Source: Atribacterota bacterium (GTDB lineage: Bacteria; Atribacterota; Phoenicimicrobiia; Phoenicimicrobiales; Stramentimicrobiaceae). Taken from it: DNA of 64,000 bases. A program made the translations under genes and the position numbers. Below the pieces are notes generated by a model that was not told the DNA's origin, searched no databases, and saw only the letters and a program-made list of their open reading frames with translations. Below are positions 1 through 63,205 of the stretch, piece by piece; the stretch's first letter is position 1, and each line of letters opens with the position of its first letter. The DNA lies in NCBI GenBank assembly GCA_028703475.1, contig JAQVMU010000001.1, forward strand, positions 44,436 through 108,435, read 5' to 3'.

Positions 1-222
1 CTGACTGTCACAATAAAATTCAACACTTTCTGCAGGTATATTTTTTATCTCTTCCAATCCTCTGATTACAGCCTGATATTCAGCAATGTTGTTTGTTCCC
101 CTGCCGATAATTTCATTTACTTTTTTAACAATATTTCCATCCTTATAGATTACAACACCAATAGCCATTTTTCCCGGATTGGGAATACATGAACCATCAA
201 CACGCAATAATAATTTAGACAT
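1..222 (-). CDS. rnhA: Ribonuclease HI (type 1 RNase H), 5' part only; the gene continues beyond the window start
   Basis: Manual translation of the minus strand from ATG at 220-222 gives MSKLLLRVDGSCIPNPGKMAIGVVIYKDGNIVKK...TNNIAEYQAVIRGLEEIK...FYCDSQ. The DGSC-NPG, TNN-E and DSQ catalytic motifs of RNase HI are present. A GAGGA Shine-Dalgarno lies upstream. Confidence 0.8.
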   Translation of the reverse strand, partial: MSKLLLRVDGSCIPNPGKMAIGVVIYKDGNIVKKVNEIIGRGTNNIAEYQAVIRGLEEIKNIPAESVEFYCDSQ

Positions 223-486
223 AATAATCCTCTACTTTTGTCATTTCTTTTAATATTTCTCTTGATTAGTTAAAATCACTGGTACAAAAAACCTGGTAAT
301 TATTCAGATAACTGTTAATCCGGGAACAAGTTTCAAACGGGAATCGGAATGGTTAAAGTCCCCAAAATATAATTTATCCTGAAATAATTAAGTATCATTT
401 TTATACTCTTACTCTTATATATTATCATATATTATCACTTTAATTACCAAATTTTGTCAGCAAATTACAACATATCCACGAAAGAT

Positions 487-514
487 TTGACATTTTTAAA
501 TATATAACTAAAAT
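487..514 (+). promoter_or_regulatory. Putative sigma-A type promoter (TTGACA, 16 nt spacer, TAAAAT) upstream of the unknown two-gene cassette
   Basis: TTGACA at 487-492 and TAAAAT at 509-514 read directly. It sits about 70 nt upstream of the ATG at 588. Confidence 0.3.
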
Positions 515-587
515 GTTGTAAGTGAGTATAACTTTATACAAAAAAACAATGATTTGTATAAAAATGTATTCCTAAAAAGAAGGGATA

Positions 588-1322
588 GTGAATATGGACA
601 AGAGAATACAGTATGCATTTGAAAACTCGAAAATATTAAAATGGCCGAAGCAGCTTTTGTCTTCCTTTGGTTCCTCAGAAATACACTATCATGTTTTGAC
701 AGAGCCTGTTTACCAGGAATTTACCAAAGGAGATACCGAAACTGTTGTCAGAGAGGGAACAGTCAGCTGGCATCGTCCGCAGCTCTTAACACCAGGGTAT
801 ATTCTTCGAATTGAGGGCTTTAGTGATGAAGCCAGAAATGCTTTTTCTGAATTAGCAGATGAAATGCCTGATTTAGCCAGCATTTTATATCGTTTCCATT
901 TCAAAAGAGAAGTAGACTCAATGAACTTTGTTTCAGGAAATTTAGAAACTGTTGCAGATAAGATTGCAAGGGGCATCGAAAAAAGAGGAGATAATCTATC
1001 TGCTATTATTCAAGGAGTAGGAGATTTATGGGATATTTCACTCTCTAAATTTATTCTTGACATGATGACTAAAAGTGCGCGACAATCTCATTTTCCGGAA
1101 CTAAGAAAAAGAGGGCTGGTATCTTATAATCAATTTGGCCAGCAGGTAGTATCAAGAGATAACCAGGGTATTCCGCTTATTGCTAAAAAAGAAATTGAGT
1201 CAATGTTCCAGATGGTAAAAAATGGTGATATGGAACCCAGGGATTTAAAAAAGGAATTAGATCGTTGGGGATTATTTGAATTATATCAGGATCGTTTTTT
1301 CGATTTGTTCAGAAGGAGGTAA
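588..1322 (+). CDS. Hypothetical protein of 244 aa with no recognisable family motif; first gene of a two-gene cassette
   Basis: Long ORF with plausible codon usage and a GGGATAG purine-rich stretch before the ATG. Its stop lies 2 nt before the GTG start of the next ORF. No signal peptide or TM segment is apparent. Confidence 0.55.
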   Translation: MNMDKRIQYAFENSKILKWPKQLLSSFGSSEIHYHVLTEPVYQEFTKGDTETVVREGTVSWHRPQLLTPGYILRIEGFSDEARNAFSELADEMPDLASILYRFHFKREVDSMNFVSGNLETVADKIARGIEKRGDNLSAIIQGVGDLWDISLSKFILDMMTKSARQSHFPELRKRGLVSYNQFGQQVVSRDNQGIPLIAKKEIESMFQMVKNGDMEPRDLKKELDRWGLFELYQDRFFDLFRRR

Positions 1323-1324
1323 GT

Positions 1325-1918
1325 GTGGCAAAGATCAAATCAGCATTAGAAATAGCCATGGAAAAATCAAAAAAAATTGAAAAATTAAGTTCTCAGGAAA
1401 TGAATGAGATAAGACAACAAGAAAAAATTGATAGAATTTTAGCGAAATATTACAAAGACGAAATTGAGGCAGATGATTTATGGCGTCATCTAAAAGATAT
1501 TTCCAATAAAATGTTAATTAATGCACAAAATAACTTTCTTCAATCATTAACATTTCAAAGCAATGAATTTGAGATTGAAAAAAGAAAAAACGGAATACTT
1601 GCAATTGAAAACCTGAAAAATGACAATTTAACTTCAGACATTGAATTCTCTTTTGAGCAACTGGCCAAAATACGTACTGAGTTCAAAAAAAACAAAGAGC
1701 AATTGATGCAAATACTTCGAGAAGAGTTAGAAAGAGATCCCCAAAGGAGATTTCAGACATTTCAACAGGATGGTCAGATTGTTGTAAAACAATTAAGTAT
1801 GGAAGAAGCCATGGAACAGGATGAGCAGTTGAAGAAAAATTTAAAACAACTGGAAATACAATTCAGCAAAAAGTATAATACCGTTAAAGAAAAAATAAGT
1901 AACATTATTAACAATTAG
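1325..1918 (+). CDS. Hypothetical coiled-coil protein of 197 aa, rich in E, K and Q; second gene of the cassette
   Basis: GTG start preceded by AGGAGG. Heptad-like charged composition throughout. Followed immediately by a strong terminator hairpin. Confidence 0.5.
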   Translation: MAKIKSALEIAMEKSKKIEKLSSQEMNEIRQQEKIDRILAKYYKDEIEADDLWRHLKDISNKMLINAQNNFLQSLTFQSNEFEIEKRKNGILAIENLKNDNLTSDIEFSFEQLAKIRTEFKKNKEQLMQILREELERDPQRRFQTFQQDGQIVVKQLSMEEAMEQDEQLKKNLKQLEIQFSKKYNTVKEKISNIINN

Positions 1919-1935
1919 CTTAGCAGTCTATATAC

Positions 1936-1975
1936 AAAAACCGGTCTTTTTATCAGAAAGACCGGTTTTTTTCCA
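1936..1975. terminator. Bidirectional rho-independent terminator between convergent genes
   Basis: aaaaaccggtcttt / loop / aaagaccggttttttt forms a perfect 14-bp stem with A-run and T-run flanks. It can terminate both the plus-strand cassette and the minus-strand DUF4139 gene. Confidence 0.7.
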
Positions 1976-2022
1976 TTTATCCAATAAGGCATATCTTTTA
2001 TTATGTATCAAAAATGTTTATT

Positions 2023-3684
2023 TTATGGCAAATCTATTACCTGTAAATCTCTCGGATGTATAACAGTGTACCCAATATTGATTTCAATCTTCTCCTTTGG
2101 CTGTAATAAAACTTCCCACATCCATACTCCTTTTTTATCATTCCAATCCTTTATATCAGGCTCCAGACTGATATCTTCAATATTTACCTGAATTCTATCA
2201 TCCGCCGGAATAGGGATATTTTCAAAAATCTGGCATAGCGATTCCGAATCCTGATAATTTTCTAATACTATTTTGTATTCATACTTAGTGGCAATTTTAG
2301 AGGAAGGTATACTGGCAATTAAGGTTTCATCTACGTATTTTCTAATTAGCTTTCTCTGTATCCGAACATTTTCCGCAATTCCTAATGAAACTTCAAAGTC
2401 TTCTCCCGTGGGAATATAATCTATTGAGCTGTTACCTATATAACCTCCTTCTAAAAATAGGTTAGCTTCACCGGGTAGTAAGGGAATATCCATGTTATTT
2501 TTTAAAGATACATTATAATAAACAAAAGGGCTTTCCTTTGGATATGCCTTATACTGAAAATTTCCTGTTAATTCTTCTTCAGAGATTAACAACTTTTCCT
2601 GTCTGTTACCTGATAAAACAGAAATTTTGTGAGGAATATTATAAGTAACACTTGTACCTTTATGCTCTACGGGTACAATATTTTTTTCATACATACTGTC
2701 TCCTGAAACTGCTTCTAAGGCATATTCCTCCATTATAGGAGTCTGTACCATCTTACTGTCTCTTTGCTCTAACTGGAATGGTTTTAAAAACCACGGTTCA
2801 ACGGTAGGCATAATACCTGATACAGTTGGCCTTGCAGTAGATAAAGAAATATAAACATCCTCCCAGTTTGTTCCAGTAGACTGATTTATTAAGGCATATG
2901 TAAAGATAGTGATGCTGTTTTCATTGATATTTGCCCTGATATCATAAGCGGGTCGCCAGCTGATTTCATTATCTACCAGATATGATATTAAAATATGTGG
3001 ATTGCTTTTTTTATAGACATCTAACTCAATAGTTACTATTACTTTGGTATCAATTTGTCTATCTATTATTTGCTGTAATTGTTTTTCCAGGAAAACAATC
3101 TTTTCCTGAAGTGATTCTATTTCCAAGTCATAATTCAGTTCTTCTTCATAGTTTGATTTTAATTTTTCATCTAAAAAATCATAGATTCTTTCAAACTGCT
3201 CCACTGCTGGCATCTGAATAATGTAATCAGAAGATATATCCTGGTTTTGAAAATAATATATAATTGAATCTAAAAATCCTTTTTTGTCTTTTAGAGTATC
3301 TTTTTTACTGATTAGCAGTCTTATCTCTTTTTCCAGCTGCACAATCTCTTCCTTTAACTGCCTGATTTCTATAGAAGGCTCTACTTCTAATAAAACTTTT
3401 TCAATACTTACATTTCTTATACTGATTGCATCTTCACTGATTCCTTTTAATTCCGCATTGATTGTTCTCTCATCAAATGTTTCTAAAATATTATCAAATA
3501 CAATTTTGTGAAAGCCCTCACCCAGTTCAACTTCTGTTTCTCTGATTATCATTCCGGTATTGGGATAAATATTTATTCGGGTTGGCTGTGAATCTATTAT
3601 CACTTCCTGTGTCATCGAAAGTGCCACTCCGGAAAATATAAACATAACAAAAAAAACAGCTATTATTTTTTTAATCATCCTCAT
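2023..3684 (-). CDS. DUF4139/DUF4140-like predicted-secreted protein (mucoidy-inhibitor MuiA-like family) with N-terminal signal peptide and central coiled coil
   Basis: N-terminus MRMIKKIIAVFFVMFIFSGVALSM is signal-like. The central block is rich in coiled-coil-forming residues. The C-terminal region resembles DUF4139 proteins. Family assignment is from memory, not a search. Confidence 0.5.
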   Translation of the reverse strand: MRMIKKIIAVFFVMFIFSGVALSMTQEVIIDSQPTRINIYPNTGMIIRETEVELGEGFHKIVFDNILETFDERTINAELKGISEDAISIRNVSIEKVLLEVEPSIEIRQLKEEIVQLEKEIRLLISKKDTLKDKKGFLDSIIYYFQNQDISSDYIIQMPAVEQFERIYDFLDEKLKSNYEEELNYDLEIESLQEKIVFLEKQLQQIIDRQIDTKVIVTIELDVYKKSNPHILISYLVDNEISWRPAYDIRANINENSITIFTYALINQSTGTNWEDVYISLSTARPTVSGIMPTVEPWFLKPFQLEQRDSKMVQTPIMEEYALEAVSGDSMYEKNIVPVEHKGTSVTYNIPHKISVLSGNRQEKLLISEEELTGNFQYKAYPKESPFVYYNVSLKNNMDIPLLPGEANLFLEGGYIGNSSIDYIPTGEDFEVSLGIAENVRIQRKLIRKYVDETLIASIPSSKIATKYEYKIVLENYQDSESLCQIFENIPIPADDRIQVNIEDISLEPDIKDWNDKKGVWMWEVLLQPKEKIEINIGYTVIHPRDLQVIDLP

Positions 3685-3760
3685 ACCTACCCGTATTTCT
3701 GAAGTTTTTTTTAGAACTAAAAATATATTTTATTTCCTATTATTATCAATATTATTAGTA

Positions 3761-4612
3761 TTAATATTGTAAGACAACCCCTGAACCAATCTCTTCTAAT
3801 GGAGAAACCTGTGATAAGGCAATCTTTGATTTTAAGTCAACACAATGACAGGCATGTAACTTTTTAGGATTAATCCTTTTAAAATATTCAATTGTATTTT
3901 TTAATTGTTCTTTTGGTGAATTCAGTAGATGAAATCCGCCAATAATGTCATATATTCTGTCTTCCTTACACACCGATATTGCATAATCTATAATATTGCA
4001 AATACCAGCATGTGAGCAACCGGTGACAATTATTAATCCTTCCGGGGAATTAATAGCTATGGCAGAATCGTCAAAATTAAAATCATCAACTTCCCTTTCT
4101 TCTATACAGGTTTTACCAATCGGAGTTTTCGCCTCAAACTCATATTTCCTGGGAATCTCTCCCAGAAAAACTACATTGGGAGTTAACCATAGTGGTTTTA
4201 TAGAAGTCTTCGTCGGAAAAAATCGTTCCAGGGAATTTCTATCCAGCATGGAACCGATAGCTCCGATTTCAGGAATTTTTTTAGATGAAAAAGCATCAGG
4301 GTGTGAAATGACTGTTGGCTTATGATAAGACAATCCCTCTATTGCAGCTTCGCTTATCAATCTAATCAGATATGGTAAACCCCATGTGTGGTCCATATGT
4401 CCATGAGAAATAACAAGATAATCAAGACTCAATAAATCTATTTTCATTTTTTGAGCATTTATTAAAAAAGCATCTGAATACCCGGTATCAAATAAGATAT
4501 TCTTATTGTCAGTTTCTATATATATGGAAAGTCCCGGCTCAGCCAGAAAGTATCTGTCAATAATACTGTTGTTATCTATCAGGATTGTTATCTTTATCTC
4601 TTTATCCCCCAA
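3761..4612 (-). CDS. MBL-fold metallo-hydrolase
   Basis: HGHMDH metal-binding motif (VISHGHMDHTWG). Length and N-terminal region are typical of stand-alone MBL hydrolases. The gene starts 3 nt after the upstream ORF stop, suggesting co-transcription. Confidence 0.7.
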   Translation of the reverse strand: MGDKEIKITILIDNNSIIDRYFLAEPGLSIYIETDNKNILFDTGYSDAFLINAQKMKIDLLSLDYLVISHGHMDHTWGLPYLIRLISEAAIEGLSYHKPTVISHPDAFSSKKIPEIGAIGSMLDRNSLERFFPTKTSIKPLWLTPNVVFLGEIPRKYEFEAKTPIGKTCIEEREVDDFNFDDSAIAINSPEGLIIVTGCSHAGICNIIDYAISVCKEDRIYDIIGGFHLLNSPKEQLKNTIEYFKRINPKKLHACHCVDLKSKIALSQVSPLEEIGSGVVLQY

Positions 4613-4615
4613 CTC

Positions 4616-5140
4616 CTAAATCTCGCCTCTAACCTTAAAGAAGATAATGGCAAAATCCTCTATCATTCTATTTATATGATTTCTGGCTATCTGTTTTATA
4701 TCCTTTTCATCACAAATCCCAAGCACCTCATCAGTCCACATTTCGTACTTTTCGTAATTACCTGCCTTGCACTCAATAAGGTAGGCTATGGGTGAGTTCT
4801 CTCCTGCTATCCATACTCTAAACCAGATACTCCCTGCTCTTTTTGCTTTTTCCTCTTCCTGAAATATAGATGTTTCTTCTGCAGTTATTTCCTGATACTC
4901 AATACCGCTAAAATTATTCTTATATCTGAGTTTTGCATAATCCGTCAGCTCTTCGCTGCTCAATCCGATTCTTGGTGCCCGTTCTCCCTGTACTTTAACA
5001 TAAATATAACCAAAGGTTTCTATTTGTGCTAAATCGCCATATAGTATATCAGTAATATTTCTTTGAGCAGCAGCGTTTATACCGGCTAATAAGAAAGCTA
5101 CCATCAGGATGGAAATAACAATAACTATATTCCTGAACAT
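4616..5140 (-). CDS. Hypothetical predicted-secreted or membrane-anchored protein of 174 aa
   Basis: Hydrophobic N-terminus MFRNIVIVISILMVAFLLAGINAAAQ resembles a signal peptide. No recognisable domain. Confidence 0.45.
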   Translation of the reverse strand: MFRNIVIVISILMVAFLLAGINAAAQRNITDILYGDLAQIETFGYIYVKVQGERAPRIGLSSEELTDYAKLRYKNNFSGIEYQEITAEETSIFQEEEKAKRAGSIWFRVWIAGENSPIAYLIECKAGNYEKYEMWTDEVLGICDEKDIKQIARNHINRMIEDFAIIFFKVRGEI

Positions 5141-5260
5141 ATTTAATCACCTCTATATACAATTGTAACCAATTTGCTACAAAACAAATCATTTTTATGA
5201 TATTTTAGATCAAGGATTTAAAATGTTATTTTTAAATCTATACTTTTTTAATCATTCTGA

Positions 5261-6439
5261 CTATTTCAATTTATTGTGATTATCGGCAATTTGTTCTGCC
5301 AGCTTATCAAGTTTTGCTAAATCTTCCTTTCTGGGGTAACTTTTTACCATTACTGTTGGCAATAATTCAACTTTTAAATTACTTATTAATTGAAGAATAT
5401 TTTCCTCCATTTTACTGCCCCATCCATAAGAACCTATAATCCCTGCATATTTTGTCTTGGGTTTTAAAGCATTACAGAGGTAGGCAGCATATACAATTTG
5501 CGGATGAGGACCTGTTAGCACTGTCGGGGAAGCTATAATGACTGTTGCCGCATCTACTAAATCCATTGCCAGGTCACCAATATCAGTATAAATAAGGTTA
5601 TATGGGGTTACATTGATGTCTCTTTTTATAAGTTGATCTACCAGGTATGAAACCATCATCTCTGTACTGCCATGCATAGAAACATAAGGAATTATCACCT
5701 TATTTTTCACCTTCTCAGATACCCAATCACGATAAGCGTTTAGAATGAAATCAGGGTCTTTGTAAACCGGACCATGTGATGGAGCAATAATTTTAATGGA
5801 AACATTATCTAATTTTTTCAAGTGTCCTTTAATCTGTTTCCTGAAAGGCATCATAATTTCTGCATAATAGCGTTTGGCAGCACGATAAAAATATGCATCA
5901 TCCCTGGCCCATAATTCACTTGTAGCCATATGGGAGCCAAAAAAATCACAGGTGAATAATATTTTTTCGTTAATCAGGTAGGTTAAAAAAGTTTCCGGCC
6001 AATGTACCCATGGTGCAAATATAAATTTAAACTTCATCTCACCAAATTGAAATATTTCCCCATCCTTAATCTCATAAAAATCTTTTTCTTCCAGGTGTAA
6101 TTCATCGATTAATAATCCCTTACATTTTTTATTTGTGATAACACGACAACCTGGGTACTCTATTAATACATCTTTTATGCATCCGGAATGGTCCTGTTCA
6201 GCATGGTGTGCAATAATATAACTGATTTTCTTGATTTTTATTTCTTTTAATTTTTGAAAGAACTCTTCCTTCTTTGCAGGATCAACAGTATCAATAAGAA
6301 TTGCTTCATCTTTGTTTTTTACTAAATAGGAATTATAGCTGGTCCCATCAGGTAAGGGTATTAATTCATCAAAAAGTCTTCGATCCCAGTCTATGGAACC
6401 AATACAGTAAATATTGCTATCAAGTTGTCTGAATGCCAA
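5261..6439 (-). CDS. fprA: Flavodiiron protein (FprA-type O2/NO reductase; MBL-like diiron domain plus flavodoxin domain)
   Basis: H-x-E-x-D-H diiron motif (HHAEQDHSG). About 400 aa architecture with a C-terminal flavodoxin-like region. The start is TTG at 6437-6439, because the ORF track shows alternative starts as M. GGAGGAG lies 7 nt upstream. Confidence 0.75.
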   Translation of the reverse strand: MAFRQLDSNIYCIGSIDWDRRLFDELIPLPDGTSYNSYLVKNKDEAILIDTVDPAKKEEFFQKLKEIKIKKISYIIAHHAEQDHSGCIKDVLIEYPGCRVITNKKCKGLLIDELHLEEKDFYEIKDGEIFQFGEMKFKFIFAPWVHWPETFLTYLINEKILFTCDFFGSHMATSELWARDDAYFYRAAKRYYAEIMMPFRKQIKGHLKKLDNVSIKIIAPSHGPVYKDPDFILNAYRDWVSEKVKNKVIIPYVSMHGSTEMMVSYLVDQLIKRDINVTPYNLIYTDIGDLAMDLVDAATVIIASPTVLTGPHPQIVYAAYLCNALKPKTKYAGIIGSYGWGSKMEENILQLISNLKVELLPTVMVKSYPRKEDLAKLDKLAEQIADNHNKLK

Positions 6440-6441
6440 TA

Positions 6442-6603
6442 TTACTCCTCCTTTTCAAATTCGTCTTTGCCTGCTCCGCATAGGGGGCATACCCAATCAT
6501 CAGGCAAATCATCAAAAGAAGTTCCGGGCTCAATTTCTGATTCCGGGTCCCCTTTCTCCGGGTCGTAGATATAACCGCAAACTGTGCATTTATATTTATC
6601 CAT
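6442..6603 (-). CDS. rub: Rubredoxin, 53 aa; absent from the ORF track, probably because it is under 60 aa
   Basis: Manual minus-strand translation gives [53 protein letters not shown]. The two CxxCG knuckles (CTVCG, CPLCG) are present. The stop lies 2 nt upstream of the flavodiiron TTG start. Confidence 0.85.
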
Positions 6604-6663
6604 TATTTTTCCCCTTTCATTTTTATATTTATATTATATTGTTTTTATTATAATTAATACAAG

Positions 6664-8148
6664 CTAATTTGACAATTTATTCACTTTTTCTTTTAATAAA
6701 TCAAGCACCAAATCCGGTTGTGCCCTTCCTTTTGTGTATCGCATAACCTGTCCTACTAAATAATTTAATGCTTTTTCCTTACCAGAATGGTAATCCTGTA
6801 CTGACTGGTAATTTTGGCTGATAACTTTTTCTATTACAGTATCAATTTCACTCTTATCGCTAATTTGGGTTAAACCGCTTTCCTGTACCAACTCTTCAGC
6901 TCGCTGTCCTGTTTTATACATTTTTTCAAAAATTGTTTTAGCAATCTTTCCACTGATAATATTTCTGTCAATCAAAACCAATAATTCTGTTAATCTTTCA
7001 GCTGAAACCGGGCTTGAACTAATATCGATACTGTCTTCGCTCAGATATCCCAGCAGCTCACTTAGAATCCAGTTAGTCAGCTTTTCATAATTTTTATAAT
7101 GTCCTACCGCTTCCTCAAAGTAATCACCTAATGATTTTACCTCCACCAATCTGTCTGCATTATACTCGGAAAGGCCAAAATCTTTCACAAATCTTTTTTT
7201 TCTATCTGCAGGCAATTCAGGCAAGTTATCTTCTATCTCCTTAATCCAGGAACTTTCAATTGTTAGAGGCAATAAATCAGGTTCGGGAAAATATCGATAA
7301 TCATGTGCTTCTTCCTTGGTTCTCATGCTAATAGTTTTATTGTTTGCCTCATCCCATCTTCTCGTTTCCTGTAATATTTTTTCACCATCTTCAATCATCT
7401 TTCTCTGTCGAATTATTTCATAATCCAGAGCCTTCTTGATTGCCCGGAATGAATTCATATTTTTAACTTCAGTCTTGGTACCTAATTGATGGGTTTTTGA
7501 ATCCCTTATAGAAATATTTGCATCACATCTCATAGACCCTCTTTCCAGATTGCCATCACAGACACCAAGATACTGAACAATGCTCCTGAGATTTTGTAAA
7601 AATATTATAGCTTCATCGGAAGAATGTATATCCGGTTCAGTAACTATTTCCAGCAATGGAATACATGAACGATTATAATCTACTAAAGAACCGGTTATCC
7701 TGCCATTCTCTTCAATATGTACTAATTTACCGGCATCTTCTTCCATGTGGGCTCGATTTATTCTTATTCTGACCTTTTCATTTTGATTACCGGTCAGAAT
7801 TTCCAGATACCCTTCCCCTGCTAAGGGTAAATCATATTGTGATATCTGATAGGCCTTTGGTAAATCCGGGTAAAAATAATTTTTTCGATGAAAAATATTT
7901 GTTGTATTTATATGGCAATTTAAAGCAATTGCCGTTCTAACAGCTAATTCCACTGCTTTTTTATTTAAGACCGGCAGGCATCCGGGCAATCCTAAACAAA
8001 CCGGACATGTGTTAGTATTGGGTTCCCGGTCTATATAATCTGTGCTGCAATGGCAAAATAGTTTTGTTTGCGTTAACAATTGAACATGGATTTCTAAACC
8101 AATTACAATATCATCTTGCATTATAATTCTCCAATCCTTTAAATTCAC
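6664..8148 (-). CDS. gatB: Asp-tRNA(Asn)/Glu-tRNA(Gln) amidotransferase subunit B
   Basis: N-terminal VIGLEIHVQL motif, overall length, and position after gatA and gatC. The true start is probably the internal Met (MQDDIVIG). Confidence 0.9.
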   Translation of the reverse strand: MNLKDWRIIMQDDIVIGLEIHVQLLTQTKLFCHCSTDYIDREPNTNTCPVCLGLPGCLPVLNKKAVELAVRTAIALNCHINTTNIFHRKNYFYPDLPKAYQISQYDLPLAGEGYLEILTGNQNEKVRIRINRAHMEEDAGKLVHIEENGRITGSLVDYNRSCIPLLEIVTEPDIHSSDEAIIFLQNLRSIVQYLGVCDGNLERGSMRCDANISIRDSKTHQLGTKTEVKNMNSFRAIKKALDYEIIRQRKMIEDGEKILQETRRWDEANNKTISMRTKEEAHDYRYFPEPDLLPLTIESSWIKEIEDNLPELPADRKKRFVKDFGLSEYNADRLVEVKSLGDYFEEAVGHYKNYEKLTNWILSELLGYLSEDSIDISSSPVSAERLTELLVLIDRNIISGKIAKTIFEKMYKTGQRAEELVQESGLTQISDKSEIDTVIEKVISQNYQSVQDYHSGKEKALNYLVGQVMRYTKGRAQPDLVLDLLKEKVNKLSN

Positions 8149-8217
8149 ATTCTTCTTATTATTTCCTTTATTTTATGGAATATACAATTTTTACTGACAT
8201 AATTCTATGTTTACCGG

Positions 8218-9696
8218 TTAGCCTACTGGAGGTTTTGGTCTTTTAATCTTTAGTGTCTGATTATAATGTCTTTCAAGATTATAGCCAACACGTAATATAT
8301 TTTCTTCCTCAAATGCCCTGCTGATAATCTGTAATCCAATAGGTAAATTATCCTCATTAGTAAATCCACAATTCAGGGACATACCGGGCAGTCCTGCCAG
8401 GTTCACCGGCATTGTATAAGTATCAGTTAAATACATAGTCAGTGGATCATCTATTTTTTCGCCTATTTTAAAAGCAGGAACAGGAGAGGCAGGACAAAGT
8501 ATAATGTCAATATTTTTAAAGACTTTATCAAAATCTTCTTTGATTACAGTTCTGACCTTTTGTGCTTTTAAATAATAGGCATCGTAATAACCTGAACTTA
8601 AAGCATAGGTGCCAAGCATTATTCGGCGAATTACTTCCGGTCCAAATCCGGAACTTCTCGTTTTTCTGTACATATCCTCAAGGTCATCATTATCATCTAT
8701 TCTCAAGCCATATTGCACTCCGTCAAATTTAGCTAAATTCGAACTTGCCTCTGCCATCCCTATCAAGTAATAAGCAGGCAGTGCGTACTCTATACTCGGT
8801 AAGGATATTTCTTCTACTTTTCCACCTAATTTTGATATATGATCAATTGCTTTTAGTACAGCATCCTTTACCTCAGGATTTAAGCCTTCTTTAAAATACT
8901 CTCCGGGGACACCAAATCTTAAATCTGAAATATCATCACGGCATGCACTAAGAAAATCCGGTACAGGTACTTTAGCTGATGTGGAATCCATTTCATCATA
9001 GCCACATATTATATTCATCATTAAAGCAGCATCCTGAACACTTTTAGTTAAAACACCTACCTGGTCTAAAGAGGAGGCATAGGCAATAACACCATAACGG
9101 GATACCCGTCCATAAGTAGGTTTAAGACCAACCACCCCACAAAATGAAGCAGGCAATCTAACGGAACCCCCGGTATCTGTTCCCAAAGCCACCAGTGCTT
9201 CGTCTGCTGCTACGGCTACTGCCGAACCACCACTGGACCCTCCGGGAACACGGGTAATATCCCAGGGGTTTGTAGTTACCTGATATGCAGAATTTTCATT
9301 AGATGAACCCATACCAAATTCATCCATATTTGTTTTGCCTAATATAATCGCACCAGCATCTTTTATTTTTCTGATAACCGTGGCATTAAAAGGAGGGATA
9401 AAACCCTGTAAAATCCTGGATGCACAGTTAGTTTCTATACCTTCTGTACAAATAATATCTTTTACAGCCACCGGAAGCCCTGCAAGAGGAGGAATCTTTT
9501 CACCATTGCTTATTTTTCTATCTATTACCCTTGCCTCCTGTAATGCTTCATCCCGATTTGTCCTCAGGTAGGCCTTAAATATTTTATCAGTCTTATCAAT
9601 TTGACTAAATATATCCAATATAACCTGTTCAACTGATAATTCCTTTTCATGGACCATTCTTATATAATCAATTCCCTTTAGCTCATTCAATTGCAA
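8218..9696 (-). CDS. gatA: Glutamyl-tRNA(Gln) amidotransferase subunit A (amidase signature family)
   Basis: Amidase signature GGSSGGSAVAVAA...GTDTGGSVRLPASFCG. Confidence 0.9.
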   Translation of the reverse strand: MQLNELKGIDYIRMVHEKELSVEQVILDIFSQIDKTDKIFKAYLRTNRDEALQEARVIDRKISNGEKIPPLAGLPVAVKDIICTEGIETNCASRILQGFIPPFNATVIRKIKDAGAIILGKTNMDEFGMGSSNENSAYQVTTNPWDITRVPGGSSGGSAVAVAADEALVALGTDTGGSVRLPASFCGVVGLKPTYGRVSRYGVIAYASSLDQVGVLTKSVQDAALMMNIICGYDEMDSTSAKVPVPDFLSACRDDISDLRFGVPGEYFKEGLNPEVKDAVLKAIDHISKLGGKVEEISLPSIEYALPAYYLIGMAEASSNLAKFDGVQYGLRIDDNDDLEDMYRKTRSSGFGPEVIRRIMLGTYALSSGYYDAYYLKAQKVRTVIKEDFDKVFKNIDIILCPASPVPAFKIGEKIDDPLTMYLTDTYTMPVNLAGLPGMSLNCGFTNEDNLPIGLQIISRAFEEENILRVGYNLERHYNQTLKIKRPKPPVG

Positions 9697-10082: not shown

Positions 10083-12104
10083 TTATCCGCTTTTACCTAT
10101 CATTTTTTTAAAATCTTCTTCTTTAATTATTTTTGTATTCAGTTCTAATGCTTTTTGATATTTCTTACCCGGATCATTTCCTAATACTAAATAATCTGTT
10201 TTCCCTGTTACATTACCGGTGACTCTCCCGCCTAATTTTTCAATTTCAATTTTTGCCTGTTCTCTGCTGAAACTTTCCAGTGTGCCGGTTATAACAAATT
10301 GAGTACCATCCAACAGTTGCTTCTCCTCTTTTCCTGTTACTGCACTCAGTTTAACTCCTGCATCCTTTAATTTATCAATTATTAATAAATTTTCTCTTTC
10401 CTTAAAAAATAATTGAATGCTCTCTGCAATCTTAGGACCTATCTCCTGAATACTGATTAAATCGTCTAAGCTCTTATTTTGTAAATCATAAATATTGTCT
10501 ATTTTTTGGGAAATTACTTTCGCAGCATAACTGCCAACATAGCGAATGCCCAAAGCATACAGCAAATTAGGTAAAGGTCTGTTTTTACTTTCTTTTATAG
10601 CATTTATTATATTTTCCGATGATTTTTCTGCCATTCTTTCCAGTTTAATCAAATCATCCTTTTTCAGATAATACAAATCAGCAAAATCATTGATAATCTT
10701 CCTGTCAACAAGCTGTTCTATTAAGGCTGAACCCAGGCCATCAATATCCATTGCCTGCCTGGAAACAAAATGCTTAATCCTCTCTTTTACCTGAGCAGGA
10801 CAGGCAATATTATTACAGCGAGTAGCGACTTCATCATTTAATTTTACGACACGGGAATTACAAACAGGACATTTCGATGGCATATTAAACTTTCTTTCTT
10901 TACCATTACGATTTTCCTTGATTACTTTTACCACTTCAGGAATAACTTCTCCAGCTTTTTGTACCAGTACAGTGTCCCCGATCCGAATATCCTTTCTTCT
11001 AATTTCATCTTCATTATGCAATGTAGCTCTCTGAACTCTTGACCCGGAAATAATTATCGGTTTCAAAACAGCTACCGGGGTAAGAGTTCCGGTTCGGCCA
11101 ACACTTACTTTAATATCTTTTATTACAGTTGTCATCTGCACAGCGGGAAATTTAAAGGCTATTGCCCAACGGGGACTTTTAGAAGTGGAGCCAAGTTGTT
11201 CTCTGATTTTTAACTGGTTAATTTTTATCACCATTCCGTCAATCTCGTAGTTAAGGTCATTTTTTCTTTTACTCCAGGAATCACAATACTCTATAGCATC
11301 TCTTATATCCCGGCAATGTTTAATATGCGGATTTACCTTAAACCCAGCATATCTTAAAAATTCCAATACTTCCATATGTGTTCTGAATTCACTTTTTTCA
11401 GGTAGCATTGCCTGGTAAATAAAGGTGTCGAGCTGCCTTTTTGCTGTTATTGCAGGATCCAGCTGGCGTACTGAACCGGCAGCGGCATTGCGGGGATTAG
11501 CAAACAGGTTTTCACCTTTTTTTATTCTTTCTTCATTAAGCATCTTAAAGCTATCCTTGTTCATATATACTTCACCGTAAACTTCAATACGTTGAAATTG
11601 ATTATTATTTCTTAATTTTAATGGTATACTGTTTATTGTTCTTAAATTTTGAGTAATATCCTCTCCGGTAAAACCATCGCCTCTGGTTGCCCCGCGAATT
11701 AGAATCCCTTCTTCGTAAACCAGGGCAATTGCAAGTCCATCTATCTTTAATTCAACAACATAATCAAATAATTCTGATGGATAACTCTTCTTGATTCTTT
11801 TATCAAAATCTAACAATTCTTTGTCTGAAAAAGCATTGGACAGACTTAACATAGGAACAAGGTGTTTAGCAGTTTTAAATTCAGCTAAGGGTTTTGCTCC
11901 AACTCTTTGCGTAGGTGAGTCAGGAATAATTAATTCAGGATATTTTTGTTCTAATTTAATCAATTGATTCAGCAAAGTATCATATTCATAATCTGATATA
12001 AGAGGCTTATCAAGAATATAGTAATTATAATTGTGGTTTCTAATTACCTCTCTAAGTTTGTTTATCTCCTTTTTTATATCCGATTTATTTCCTGTTAATC
12101 CCAT
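10083..12104 (-). CDS. ligA: NAD-dependent DNA ligase
   Basis: Adenylation motif KLDGLA. Four-Cys zinc finger (CPVCNS...CNNIACPAQ). C-terminal HhH and BRCT regions. Confidence 0.9.
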   Translation of the reverse strand: MGLTGNKSDIKKEINKLREVIRNHNYNYYILDKPLISDYEYDTLLNQLIKLEQKYPELIIPDSPTQRVGAKPLAEFKTAKHLVPMLSLSNAFSDKELLDFDKRIKKSYPSELFDYVVELKIDGLAIALVYEEGILIRGATRGDGFTGEDITQNLRTINSIPLKLRNNNQFQRIEVYGEVYMNKDSFKMLNEERIKKGENLFANPRNAAAGSVRQLDPAITAKRQLDTFIYQAMLPEKSEFRTHMEVLEFLRYAGFKVNPHIKHCRDIRDAIEYCDSWSKRKNDLNYEIDGMVIKINQLKIREQLGSTSKSPRWAIAFKFPAVQMTTVIKDIKVSVGRTGTLTPVAVLKPIIISGSRVQRATLHNEDEIRRKDIRIGDTVLVQKAGEVIPEVVKVIKENRNGKERKFNMPSKCPVCNSRVVKLNDEVATRCNNIACPAQVKERIKHFVSRQAMDIDGLGSALIEQLVDRKIINDFADLYYLKKDDLIKLERMAEKSSENIINAIKESKNRPLPNLLYALGIRYVGSYAAKVISQKIDNIYDLQNKSLDDLISIQEIGPKIAESIQLFFKERENLLIIDKLKDAGVKLSAVTGKEEKQLLDGTQFVITGTLESFSREQAKIEIEKLGGRVTGNVTGKTDYLVLGNDPGKKYQKALELNTKIIKEEDFKKMIGKSG

Positions 12105-15845: not shown

Positions 15846-15921
15846 GCGGGAATAGCTCAGTTGGTAGAGCGTTGGCTTCCCAAGCCAAAGGCCGCGGGTT
15901 CAAACCCCGTTTCCCGCTCCA
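15846..15921 (+). tRNA. tRNA-Gly (anticodon CCC), CCA encoded
   Basis: Hand-folded cloverleaf. Acceptor GCGGGAA/TTCCCGC. D-arm GCTC-AGTTGGTA-GAGC. Anticodon stem TTGGC/GCCAA with loop TTCCCAA. T-loop TTCAAAC. Close to canonical tRNA-Gly (GCGGGAATAGCTCAGTTGGTAGAGC...). Confidence 0.85.
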
Positions 15922-19031: not shown

Positions 19032-19109
<78 letters not shown>

Positions 19110-62816: not shown

Positions 62817-63205
62817 CTTTCGGCAAGTAAATCATAAGCCGAGTTCTGTCACTGCACATTCCTTATTAATAGAGATTAATAAAAATATGCAGTGTGGTAA
62901 TCATCTATCTGGGGCATAAGTTGCCTTAATACCTCATAGCGACCTACCCGGAAACCTATAGCGGGCAACTAATTGTTTCCTTCTTGGTCTTGCTCCAAGT
63001 GGGGTTTGCTAAGCTTATTGGTTACCCAATAACTGGTAGGCTCTTACCCGGCCTTTTCACCATTGCCAATTTGGCTGTTTCCTTTTCTGTAGCACTTTCC
63101 CGGGGTCACCCCCGCTGGGAATTACCCAGCACTCTGCCCTGTGGAGCTCGGACTTTCCTCAAACCCGTAATACGAGTCTGCGATTACCTGATTTACTTGC
63201 CAAAG
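62817..63205 (-). ncRNA. rnpB: RNase P RNA (bacterial type A)
   Basis: The minus strand contains GAGGAAAGTCCGAGCTCCACAGGGCAGAGTGCTGGGTAA (P4 region consensus) and ACAGAACTCGGCTTATGA (3' P4 strand). The P1 helix CTTTGGCAAGTAAATCA pairs with TGATTTACTTGCCGAAAG. Length is about 389 nt. The region is GC-richer than the flanking DNA and non-coding. Confidence 0.88.

Follow-up and report, generated by a model that had tools for sequence, protein, structure and literature searches.

An exported-looking protein, a COG1237-type hydrolase and a MuiA-family protein share a variable locus downstream of the rubredoxin and flavodiiron protein genes in Atribacterota

Three adjacent genes in an Atribacterota genome, which encode a 174-aa predicted exported protein (g1), a 283-aa metallo-beta-lactamase-fold hydrolase (MBL) and a 553-aa DUF4139 protein of the MuiA family (g3), form an ordinary gene neighbourhood and are not supported as a conserved system. 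The genes are real, and we consider it likely, with a probability of about 0.7, that their functions are separate and that they are neighbours at one locus rather than parts of a single machine. The initial annotation of the stretch of DNA analysed here (64,000 nt; hereafter, the window) had read the linkage of DUF4139 to the MBL as a sign of an uncharacterised envelope-associated system. This linkage did not survive comparison: the MBL and DUF4139 genes are not co-conserved (3/17 species-level Atribacterota loci and 0/80 loci outside the phylum), and each was found without an intact copy of the other. The source genome is assigned to Atribacterota by the g1 product, which is 100% identical to a protein of an Atribacterota MAG at NCBI.

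All three genes are intact ORFs on the minus strand, g1 at 5140..4616 (start ATG), MBL at 4612..3761 (start TTG) and g3 at 3684..2023 (start ATG), and the co-oriented arrangement with gaps of 3 and 76 nt that had been described for them was confirmed. At the g1-MBL junction (4613..4615, minus strand), GAG separates the TAG stop codon of g1 from TTG. The 76-nt spacer between MBL and g3 (3685..3760, minus strand) is AT-rich and contains a sigma-70-like TTGATA-16-TATATT element at 3749..3722 that matches the consensus in 10 of 12 positions, in a scan that as a whole did not rise above chance (31 sites vs 24.6 +/- 5.0 in shuffled sequences). This spacer may contain a promoter specific to g3, with all promoter predictions taken as leads only. 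The scan for terminator-like sites detected none between g1 and g3; the single one follows g3, a hairpin at 1936..1970 with a 16-bp stem including 5 GC pairs and a T tail, flanked by A-runs and T-runs on both sides. As judged from its sequence, this hairpin can be used as a putative terminator both ways and would close the g1-MBL-g3 direction of transcription. Because no terminator-like site was detected from g1 to g3, the three genes, even together with the pair upstream, could share one transcript.

The upstream pair encodes a 53-aa rubredoxin (Rd; 6603..6442, minus strand) and a 392-aa flavodiiron protein (FDP; 6439..5261, minus strand), both recognized by profile matches and both absent from the initial annotation. 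The gap between FDP and g1 is 120 nt in the window. A 9-bp perfect palindrome in this spacer (5215-5238) was considered as a regulatory element and rejected, being absent from every fetched locus. On the other side, beyond the hairpin, lie two convergent genes on the plus strand, encoding proteins of 244 aa (588..1322) and 197 aa (1325..1918), a conserved pair that marks the far boundary of the variable stretch. Neither product had a match in Pfam, NCBIfam, PADLOC or PDB, and a search of the 244-aa protein against PDB sequences returned nothing meaningful.

Gene content was compared across 23 Atribacterota loci, 17 of them species-level, a modest sample of MAGs and metagenome contigs in which absence means absence from the locus and not necessarily from the genome. 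The backbone ligA-gatCAB-Rd-FDP-g1 is conserved, and the stretch between g1 and the convergent gene pair varies in content among related species. The MBL was detected in 3 of the 17 species-level loci (the window, L020 and L024; 5 of 23 overall), and DUF4139 occurs without it in at least nine (L010, L012, L016, L017, L018, L019, L021, L022, L023). As judged by tblastn and gene tables, the arrangements comprise g1-MBL-DUF4139 (window, L001 (=L024), L015, L020), g1-MBL-MFS with DUF4139 fragments amounting to about 460 nt (L014), g1-MFS-DUF4139 (L008 (=L023), L021, L022), g1-DUF4139 (L010, L012, L016, L017, L018, L019) and g1-MFS only (L003, L006 (=L029), L025, L026, L027, L030, L032, L033). A 201-aa gene that appeared in the gene table to replace the MBL in L001 was discarded as such, tblastn revealing that its start was mis-called and that the MBL is full-length there. 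In a neighbour-joining tree of FDP and g1, the MFS-only loci form one clade, set against a clade with patchy MBL, MFS and DUF4139. Identity to the window copy is 62-68% for the MBL and 66-79% for FDP, and this similar divergence fits vertical descent with repeated loss. Four Atribacterota lineages share the order g1-MBL-DUF4139, at DUF4139 identities of 46-54%, so the arrangement is old and a shared use of the three genes is possible, a finding that counts against our main reading.

Outside the phylum, the flanks of 80 DUF4139 loci contained no COG1237-type MBL, no g1 homolog and no MFS gene; in these loci, DUF4139 is located between ahcY and pfkA. This survey was seeded with a 14-sequence alignment of the Omnitrophota type, which replaced a 64-sequence DUF4139 alignment too diverse to serve as a seed, and accordingly draws for the most part on that branch (41-72% identity to P0192). 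MBL homologs from Bacillus and a further metagenomic lineage have unrelated neighbours. Among PADLOC defence systems, the only match was a generic RTasMBL hit in the N-terminal region of the MBL (26.5 bits, residues 25-89), with none for g1 or g3.

These observations bear on three alternatives to separate functions at a shared locus. That g1, MBL and DUF4139 constitute one dedicated, uncharacterised envelope-associated operon system would be in keeping with the co-orientation, the short gaps, the position of the sole terminator-like site past g3, the hydropathy of two of the three products, which look exported, and the repetition of the three-gene order in L001/L024, L015 and L020. We nonetheless regard it as very improbable: 14 of the 17 species-level loci lack the MBL, at least nine loci keep DUF4139 in its absence, L014 retains the MBL while DUF4139 has decayed, and the whole MFS-only clade listed above keeps g1 without either gene. 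Moreover, none of the 80 DUF4139 loci outside the phylum includes an MBL or g1, and the MBL itself is cytoplasmic, with close homologs (53-60% identity) in organisms and contexts lacking DUF4139. A looser arrangement, in which g1-MBL-MFS-DUF4139 was an ancestral module that is now eroding, appears unlikely. In its favour, L014 holds the MBL, MFS and DUF4139 remnants in one orientation, all four genes are confined to the variable stretch among the loci examined, and the match between the divergence of the MBL and that of the flanking genes suggests common descent rather than repeated insertion. In such a module, the hydrolase might, for example, make or detoxify a small molecule that the MFS protein moves across the membrane, with g1 and DUF4139 on the envelope side. 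Against it, most presence-absence combinations were observed, so that no member depends on another, no pairing recurs outside Atribacterota, and the collinearity of the whole block, including ligA and gatCAB, implies that adjacency can be merely inherited.

The third alternative concerns g1 alone, as an envelope accessory of an O2/NO-reducing Rd-FDP unit of oxidative or nitrosative stress, with the MBL and DUF4139 as bystanders. In every Atribacterota locus whose upstream region can be read, g1 is immediately preceded by Rd-FDP on the same strand, and these two genes are the sole invariant neighbours of g1 among the Atribacterota loci; in the MFS-only clade, the gap between FDP and g1 is only about 27-36 nt (L003, L006, L026, L027), suggesting co-transcription. 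This proposal is, all the same, decidedly doubtful, given that no FDP or Rd occurs close to five distant g1 homologs (L035-L039, 27-44% identity), that the conserved order spans housekeeping genes and may be inherited synteny, that FDP and Rd are cytoplasmic whereas g1 looks exported, and that the FDP-g1 gap of the window measures 120 nt.

With respect to the individual products, g1 contains a single strongly hydrophobic segment, located at the N-terminus between basic residues and an AAA|Q site after residue 25, which delineates a predicted signal peptide (residues 1-25; nt 5140..5066, minus strand). Across 38 homologs, this segment diverges in sequence yet remains hydrophobic, xxA|Q is conserved where the signal peptide ends, and the mature protein begins at a conserved AQ(K/R). 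The hydropathy and the conservation of this pattern thus point to export of g1. The mature protein is an alpha/beta domain with two conserved cysteines, C124 and C143, the only ones in g1. The family is unnamed, comprises about 260 clusters at 50% identity, and lacks both a Pfam model and a solved structure; searches of g1 and of its profile against PDB sequences yielded nothing meaningful, and the only fused domain in longer family members was a single, uninformative Sel1/TPR repeat. In structure prediction, which had been suggested for this protein, the fold resembles CsgG, HpaA, PelC and the N-domain of TolB, which are periplasmic or outer-membrane-associated, and the alpha/beta fold is common to these proteins and to TraT, LptE, LpoB and PqiC. 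Of these, CsgG, PelC and TraT form rings. Unlike lipoproteins of the CsgG/PelC/HpaA/LptE class, g1 lacks a lipobox cysteine at the signal-peptide cleavage site.

The MBL matches Pfam Lactamase_B (1.4e-13) and aligns with PDB entries 3h3e (TM1679 of Thermotoga maritima; E 1.3e-26, in two stretches) and 2p4z (E 6.7e-26 over residues 6-261), by which it is classified, at the sequence level, as a metallo-beta-lactamase-fold hydrolase of the COG1237/TM1679 type. It shares with these solved members a similar length, a 'KITILIDNN' N-terminus and the HxHxDH, CSH, GGFH and CHC motifs. The motifs are found at residues 70-75 (HGHMDH; nt 4405..4388), 199 (CSH), 225 (GGFH) and 255 (CHC), and are conserved in 10 aligned homologs save for CSH/CAH and ACHC/PCHC variants. 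The HGHMDH motif had been noted previously, along with the cytoplasmic appearance of the protein, and both stand, hydropathy revealing neither a hydrophobic N-terminal segment nor an export signal. Assignment as a class B beta-lactamase was rejected, with scores of 20.8 bits against a cut-off of 100 for bla_class_B_core and 15.9 against 240 for subclass B3. Homologs number 3006 at E<=1e-10; those outside Atribacterota with 53-60% identity come from Bacillaceae, Methanolobus, Chloroflexota and Clostridia. Many homologs are named '7,8-dihydropterin-6-yl-methyl-4-(beta-D-ribofuranosyl)aminobenzene 5'-phosphate synthase', which is a transferred JGI label only; the PDB names of 3h3e and 2p4z carry no assigned function, and a literature search on COG1237, TM1679 and MJ0301 gave no mechanistic information.

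At the conserved start position of the MBL gene, most Atribacterota copies have no canonical start codon, and translation in the window may truly begin at ATA (4597..4595) instead of TTG (4612). The g1-MBL junction is tight in all five MBL-bearing loci: tblastn places the first aligned MBL residue 6-14 nt past the g1 stop, and the MBL gene as called follows g1 by 20 nt in L014 and overlaps it by 11 nt in L015. This is the only consistently tight junction of the stretch, which suggests co-translation.

The assignment of the 553-aa protein to the DUF4139 family was substantiated by profile searches. DUF4140 was detected at residues 38-138 (nt 3573..3271, minus strand; 4.9e-12, 46.6 bits vs the Pfam cut-off of 27) and DUF4139 at residues 233-545 (nt 2988..2050, minus strand; 2.6e-39, 135.5 bits vs 31.8), and TIGR02231 covers residues 37-549 (model positions 5-523 of 524) with 280.7 bits vs a cut-off of 112.6 (E 2.3e-83). 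Like g1, for which a signal-peptide-like N-terminus had also been proposed, g3 contains a single hydrophobic segment at its N-terminus (19-residue Kyte-Doolittle mean of 2.41), preceded by three basic residues and followed by ALS|M after residue 23; hydropathy thus suggests export, with a predicted signal peptide at residues 1-23 (nt 3684..3616, minus strand). The coiled-coil centre ascribed to this protein corresponds, in an AlphaFold2 model (pLDDT 84.5), to an antiparallel helical hairpin (104-147/161-207; residues 104-207, nt 3375..3064, minus strand) between beta domains, with a low-confidence loop at residues 305-334. Comparison with solved structures in PDB identified no relative beyond helical hairpins, and the sequence search gave nothing meaningful.

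The order of DUF4140 and DUF4139, the length of about 550 aa and the central helical hairpin are shared with the MuiA family, and the predicted N-terminal export signal would be a further common feature, although identity to the proteobacterial, myxobacterial and Bacteroidota members is only 19-28%. In Pseudomonas aeruginosa, MuiA (mucoidy inhibitor A) is controlled by the envelope-stress ECF sigma factor SbrI and suppresses alginate production, according to a review statement (PMC10418997). By contrast with this setting, no ECF sigma or anti-sigma gene was detected among the ORFs of 1..9000, where six proteins were scanned. The literature search provided this one review statement for MuiA and no mechanistic information for DUF4139. 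Alginate production is not known in Atribacterota, and the phenotype described in Pseudomonas is therefore not transferable to g3.

Under the reading that we favour, of separate functions at a shared locus, the collinear ligA-gatCAB-Rd-FDP-g1 block is followed by a variable stretch ending at a putative bidirectional terminator hairpin and the convergent pair. In the clade that includes the window genome, the ancestral stretch was probably MBL-MFS-DUF4139, from which lineages would have lost different members. The g1 product would be exported by Sec, with its signal peptide cut after AAA, and would act as a soluble envelope protein with a fold like those of proteins beneath the outer membrane (CsgG, HpaA, PelC, TolB-N). 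The MBL, probably translated in coupling with g1, would be a binuclear metal hydrolase that remains cytoplasmic. The g3 product, probably expressed from its own promoter, is a MuiA-family protein in which a long helical hairpin accompanies beta-sandwich domains, and it would be exported. Cultured members of the phylum possess an outer lipid layer, together with a narrow space resembling a periplasm (PMC7736352); the signal peptides of Atribacterota are reported to be atypical (PMC7736352), which bears on the hydropathy-based prediction of export for g1 and g3.

Being dispensable and lineage-specific, the adjacency of a DUF4139/MuiA gene to an MBL gene in one genome offers no clue to the function of DUF4139, and solved structures still include no structural or mechanistic relative of DUF4139 proteins. 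The MBL genes appear to start at near-cognate codons just past the upstream stop, which led automatic calling to truncate the intact gene of L001. The g1 product represents an unnamed, apparently exported family with a confidently predicted fold. At long odds, it may be the founding member of an undescribed exported envelope family, hard-wired behind rubredoxin and flavodiiron protein in Atribacterota, with its translation coupled to that of a COG1237 hydrolase whose start codon is AUU, AUC or AUA; g1 would then be the envelope-side part of an O2 or NO stress response in strict anaerobes with an unusual multilayered envelope.

The picture that best fits this locus is a conserved Atribacterota gene block with a lineage-variable stretch at its end, a stretch that holds members of two known families without an assigned function and of one unnamed exported family. 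The three co-oriented genes delineated in the initial annotation are intact ORFs on the minus strand, namely, g1 (5140..4616; 174 aa, ATG start preceded by GAGGTG), the MBL-fold hydrolase gene (MBL; 4612..3761; 283 aa, TTG start) and the DUF4139 gene g3 (3684..2023; 553 aa, ATG start), separated by 3 nt and 76 nt, respectively. Directly upstream of g1 lies the gene for a flavodiiron protein (FDP; 6439..5261, minus strand; 392 aa, ODP and flavodoxin domains), preceded at 2 nt by a rubredoxin gene that the initial annotation did not include (Rd; 6603..6442, minus strand; 53 aa, under a 60-aa ORF cut-off) and, farther upstream, by gatB, gatA and ligA. Convergent to g3 are the genes for a 244-aa (588-1322, plus strand) and a 197-aa protein (1325-1918, plus strand), and the hairpin between this pair and g3 (1936-1970, 16-bp stem) can act as a terminator in both directions. 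Elsewhere, the window encodes a bacterial class A RNase P RNA (62820-63199, minus strand, 274 bits) and two tRNAs (15846-15918, plus strand; 19035-19109, minus strand).

Loci anchored on g1 were collected by exact-protein look-ups and by scanning a single genome from each species, and the window proteins were placed in them by tblastn. All contigs that extend far enough carry the SurA / ligA-gatCAB-Rd-FDP-g1 backbone as well as the convergent 197/244-aa pair, and the gene content between g1 and that pair varies. The order g1-MBL-DUF4139 occurs in the window, L001 (identical to L024), L015 and L020; g1-MFS-DUF4139, with a transporter gene (MFS), in L008 (identical to L023), L021 and L022; g1-DUF4139 in L010, L012, L016, L017, L018 and L019; and g1-MFS alone in L003, L006 (identical to L029), L025, L026, L027, L030, L032 and L033. 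L014 carries g1-MBL-MFS and, over approximately 460 nt (10262-10719) at the site of the full gene in its relatives, three short tblastn fragments matching DUF4139 residues 22-97, 161-198 and 195-255, which look like a pseudogene remnant beside intact MBL and MFS. Among the 17 informative species-level loci, MBL is found in 3 and MFS in 11; DUF4139 is found in 9 of 16. MBL is seen without DUF4139, DUF4139 without MBL, and g1 without either. A neighbour-joining tree of FDP and g1 separates an MFS-only clade from one with patchy MBL, MFS and DUF4139. Because the MBL copies and the flanking genes show similar divergence from their window counterparts (62-68% identity for MBL vs 66-79% for FDP), the simplest history is an ancestral MBL-MFS-DUF4139 stretch followed by repeated independent losses.

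The only invariant adjacency at the locus is Rd-FDP-g1, with an FDP-g1 gap that narrows to approximately 27-36 nt in the clade lacking MBL and DUF4139. The 244-aa protein is 73-86% identical across the Atribacterota loci (g1, 49-80%; DUF4139, 45-65% in the same loci), has no match in Pfam, NCBIfam, PADLOC or PDB, and has a constant partner in the 197-aa protein, which is lysine/glutamate-rich and lacks a strongly hydrophobic segment. The two form a strongly constrained gene pair.

Outside Atribacterota, aligned DUF4139 proteins of the Omnitrophota type were used to scan metagenome contigs, yielding 80 loci (L040-L119), of which 58 include 3 kb or more of flank. COG1237-type MBL, g1 homologues and MFS were found in none of the 80. 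When the flanking ORFs were clustered, DUF4139 proved to be bordered by ahcY on one side (in 49 loci, at a median of 72 nt) and by pfkA on the other (in 33 loci, at a median of 14 nt), which is again housekeeping synteny; from reading the ORF sequences, we take these flanks to be S-adenosylhomocysteine hydrolase and 6-phosphofructokinase, with a presumed SAM synthetase-like ORF further upstream. Two MBL homologues (57-59% identity) occupy unrelated contexts, downstream of rpsF-ssb-rpsR in Bacillus atrophaeus and, in a metagenomic lineage, adjoining another MBL and an ECF sigma pair. FDP, MBL and DUF4139 are all missing from the surroundings of five distant g1 homologues (27-44% identity; Nitrospirae, Halanaerobiales, Ignavibacteriaceae and unclassified MAGs). 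The co-conservation that the initial annotation required of its proposed three-component, envelope-associated system thus fails both inside and outside the phylum, and such a system is not supported. Seven of the 80 loci (L067-L070, L097-L099) carry, approximately 1-4 kb downstream of DUF4139, a same-strand cluster that we read as an Rrf2-type regulator, desulfoferrodoxin, a flavin reductase-rubredoxin fusion and a flavodiiron protein. DUF4139 thus lies close to O2/NO-detoxifying genes for a second time, in another order, which may reflect chance or a single sub-lineage.

The genes g1 and MBL are likely co-transcribed and probably translationally coupled, given that their junction is tight in all five MBL-bearing loci (first aligned MBL residue 6-14 nt past the g1 stop by tblastn), with a Shine-Dalgarno-like element within or just past that stop. 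The AT-rich 76-nt spacer upstream of g3 holds TTGATA-16-TATATT, and the g1-to-g3 distance is 66-190 nt where MBL is absent, so that g3 may be transcribed from a separate promoter; the promoter scan as a whole, however, gave no excess over chance, and no terminator-like site was found between g1 and g3. The FDP-g1 spacer contains a perfect 9-bp inverted repeat, GATTTAAAA-N6-TTTTAAATC (5215-5238), which occurs once in the window (0.08 chance matches expected) and in none of 123 fetched loci.

The MBL annotation was right: the protein matches Lactamase_B (Pfam), has no strong N-terminal hydrophobic segment by hydropathy, and is closest by sequence to the structural-genomics proteins TM1679 (3h3e, 1.3e-26) and 2p4z (6.7e-26, residues 6-261), scoring far under the NCBIfam cut-offs for true class B beta-lactamases, RNase Z and other named subfamilies. 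Its motifs (HGHMDH at residue 70, CSH at 199, GGFH at 225, CHC at 255) are kept in Bacillaceae, Methanolobus and Chloroflexota homologues, except for CSH/CAH and ACHC/PCHC variants. The conserved COG1237 start (Met of 'MKLTVLVDNN' in other phyla) is ATG in L014 (start region 7978-8003), and the same position is ATA in the window (4595-4612, minus strand), ATC in L001 (8529-8560) and ATT in L020 (868-900) and L015 (1764-1800). These near-cognate codons lie 7-10 nt past a Shine-Dalgarno-like element, just past the g1 stop, and in L001 and L020 no canonical start lies in frame upstream, a pattern that points to initiation at near-cognate codons or to termination-reinitiation coupling. Gene calling in L001 gave a truncated 201-aa product without HxHxDH; a different 201-aa gene was ruled out by tblastn, which recovered MBL at full length (61.7% identity over 282 residues) with a mis-called start.

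The DUF4139 assignment of g3 was borne out by Pfam (DUF4140, 4.9e-12; DUF4139, 2.6e-39) and by an end-to-end match to TIGR02231, 'mucoidy inhibitor MuiA family' (280.7 bits, cut-off 112.6). The predicted structure (pLDDT 84.5) falls into five regions: a beta-sandwich (residues 26-98), an antiparallel helical hairpin (104-207), for which alone solved relatives were found, beta domains (213-282), a low-confidence loop (305-334) and further beta domains (339-544). The single statement on MuiA/DUF4139 function found in the literature concerns P. aeruginosa, where the envelope-stress ECF sigma SbrI drives muiA, and muiA affects alginate promoter activity (PMC10418997).

The signal-peptide-like N-termini noted for g1 and g3 were recovered by hydropathy, each having one strong hydrophobic segment with basic residues before it and a small-residue site after it (AAA|Q past residue 25 in g1; ALS|M past residue 23 in g3). 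Across 38 g1 homologues, the first 25 residues vary in sequence but keep their hydrophobicity and conservation begins at AQ(K/R), as expected of a signal peptide that is cleaved. We infer, rather than take as established, that both proteins are exported, since signal peptides of Atribacterota are reported to be unusual (PMC7736352).

The g1 protein has no sequence match in Pfam, NCBIfam, PADLOC or PDB; at 100% identity it matches a protein from an Atribacterota MAG at NCBI, and among its 39 close homologues, all those with a source-assigned organism are from Atribacterota. A profile run against 1.84 billion representatives yielded 261 clusters (165 at E<=1e-10), mostly of 165-200 aa, those inspected having predicted signal peptides and no Pfam domain, which places g1 in a family that, though unnamed, is not tiny. 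The residual novelty of the locus lies in this family, in the invariant place of g1 behind the rubredoxin-flavodiiron protein genes, and in the apparent near-cognate start codons of MBL.
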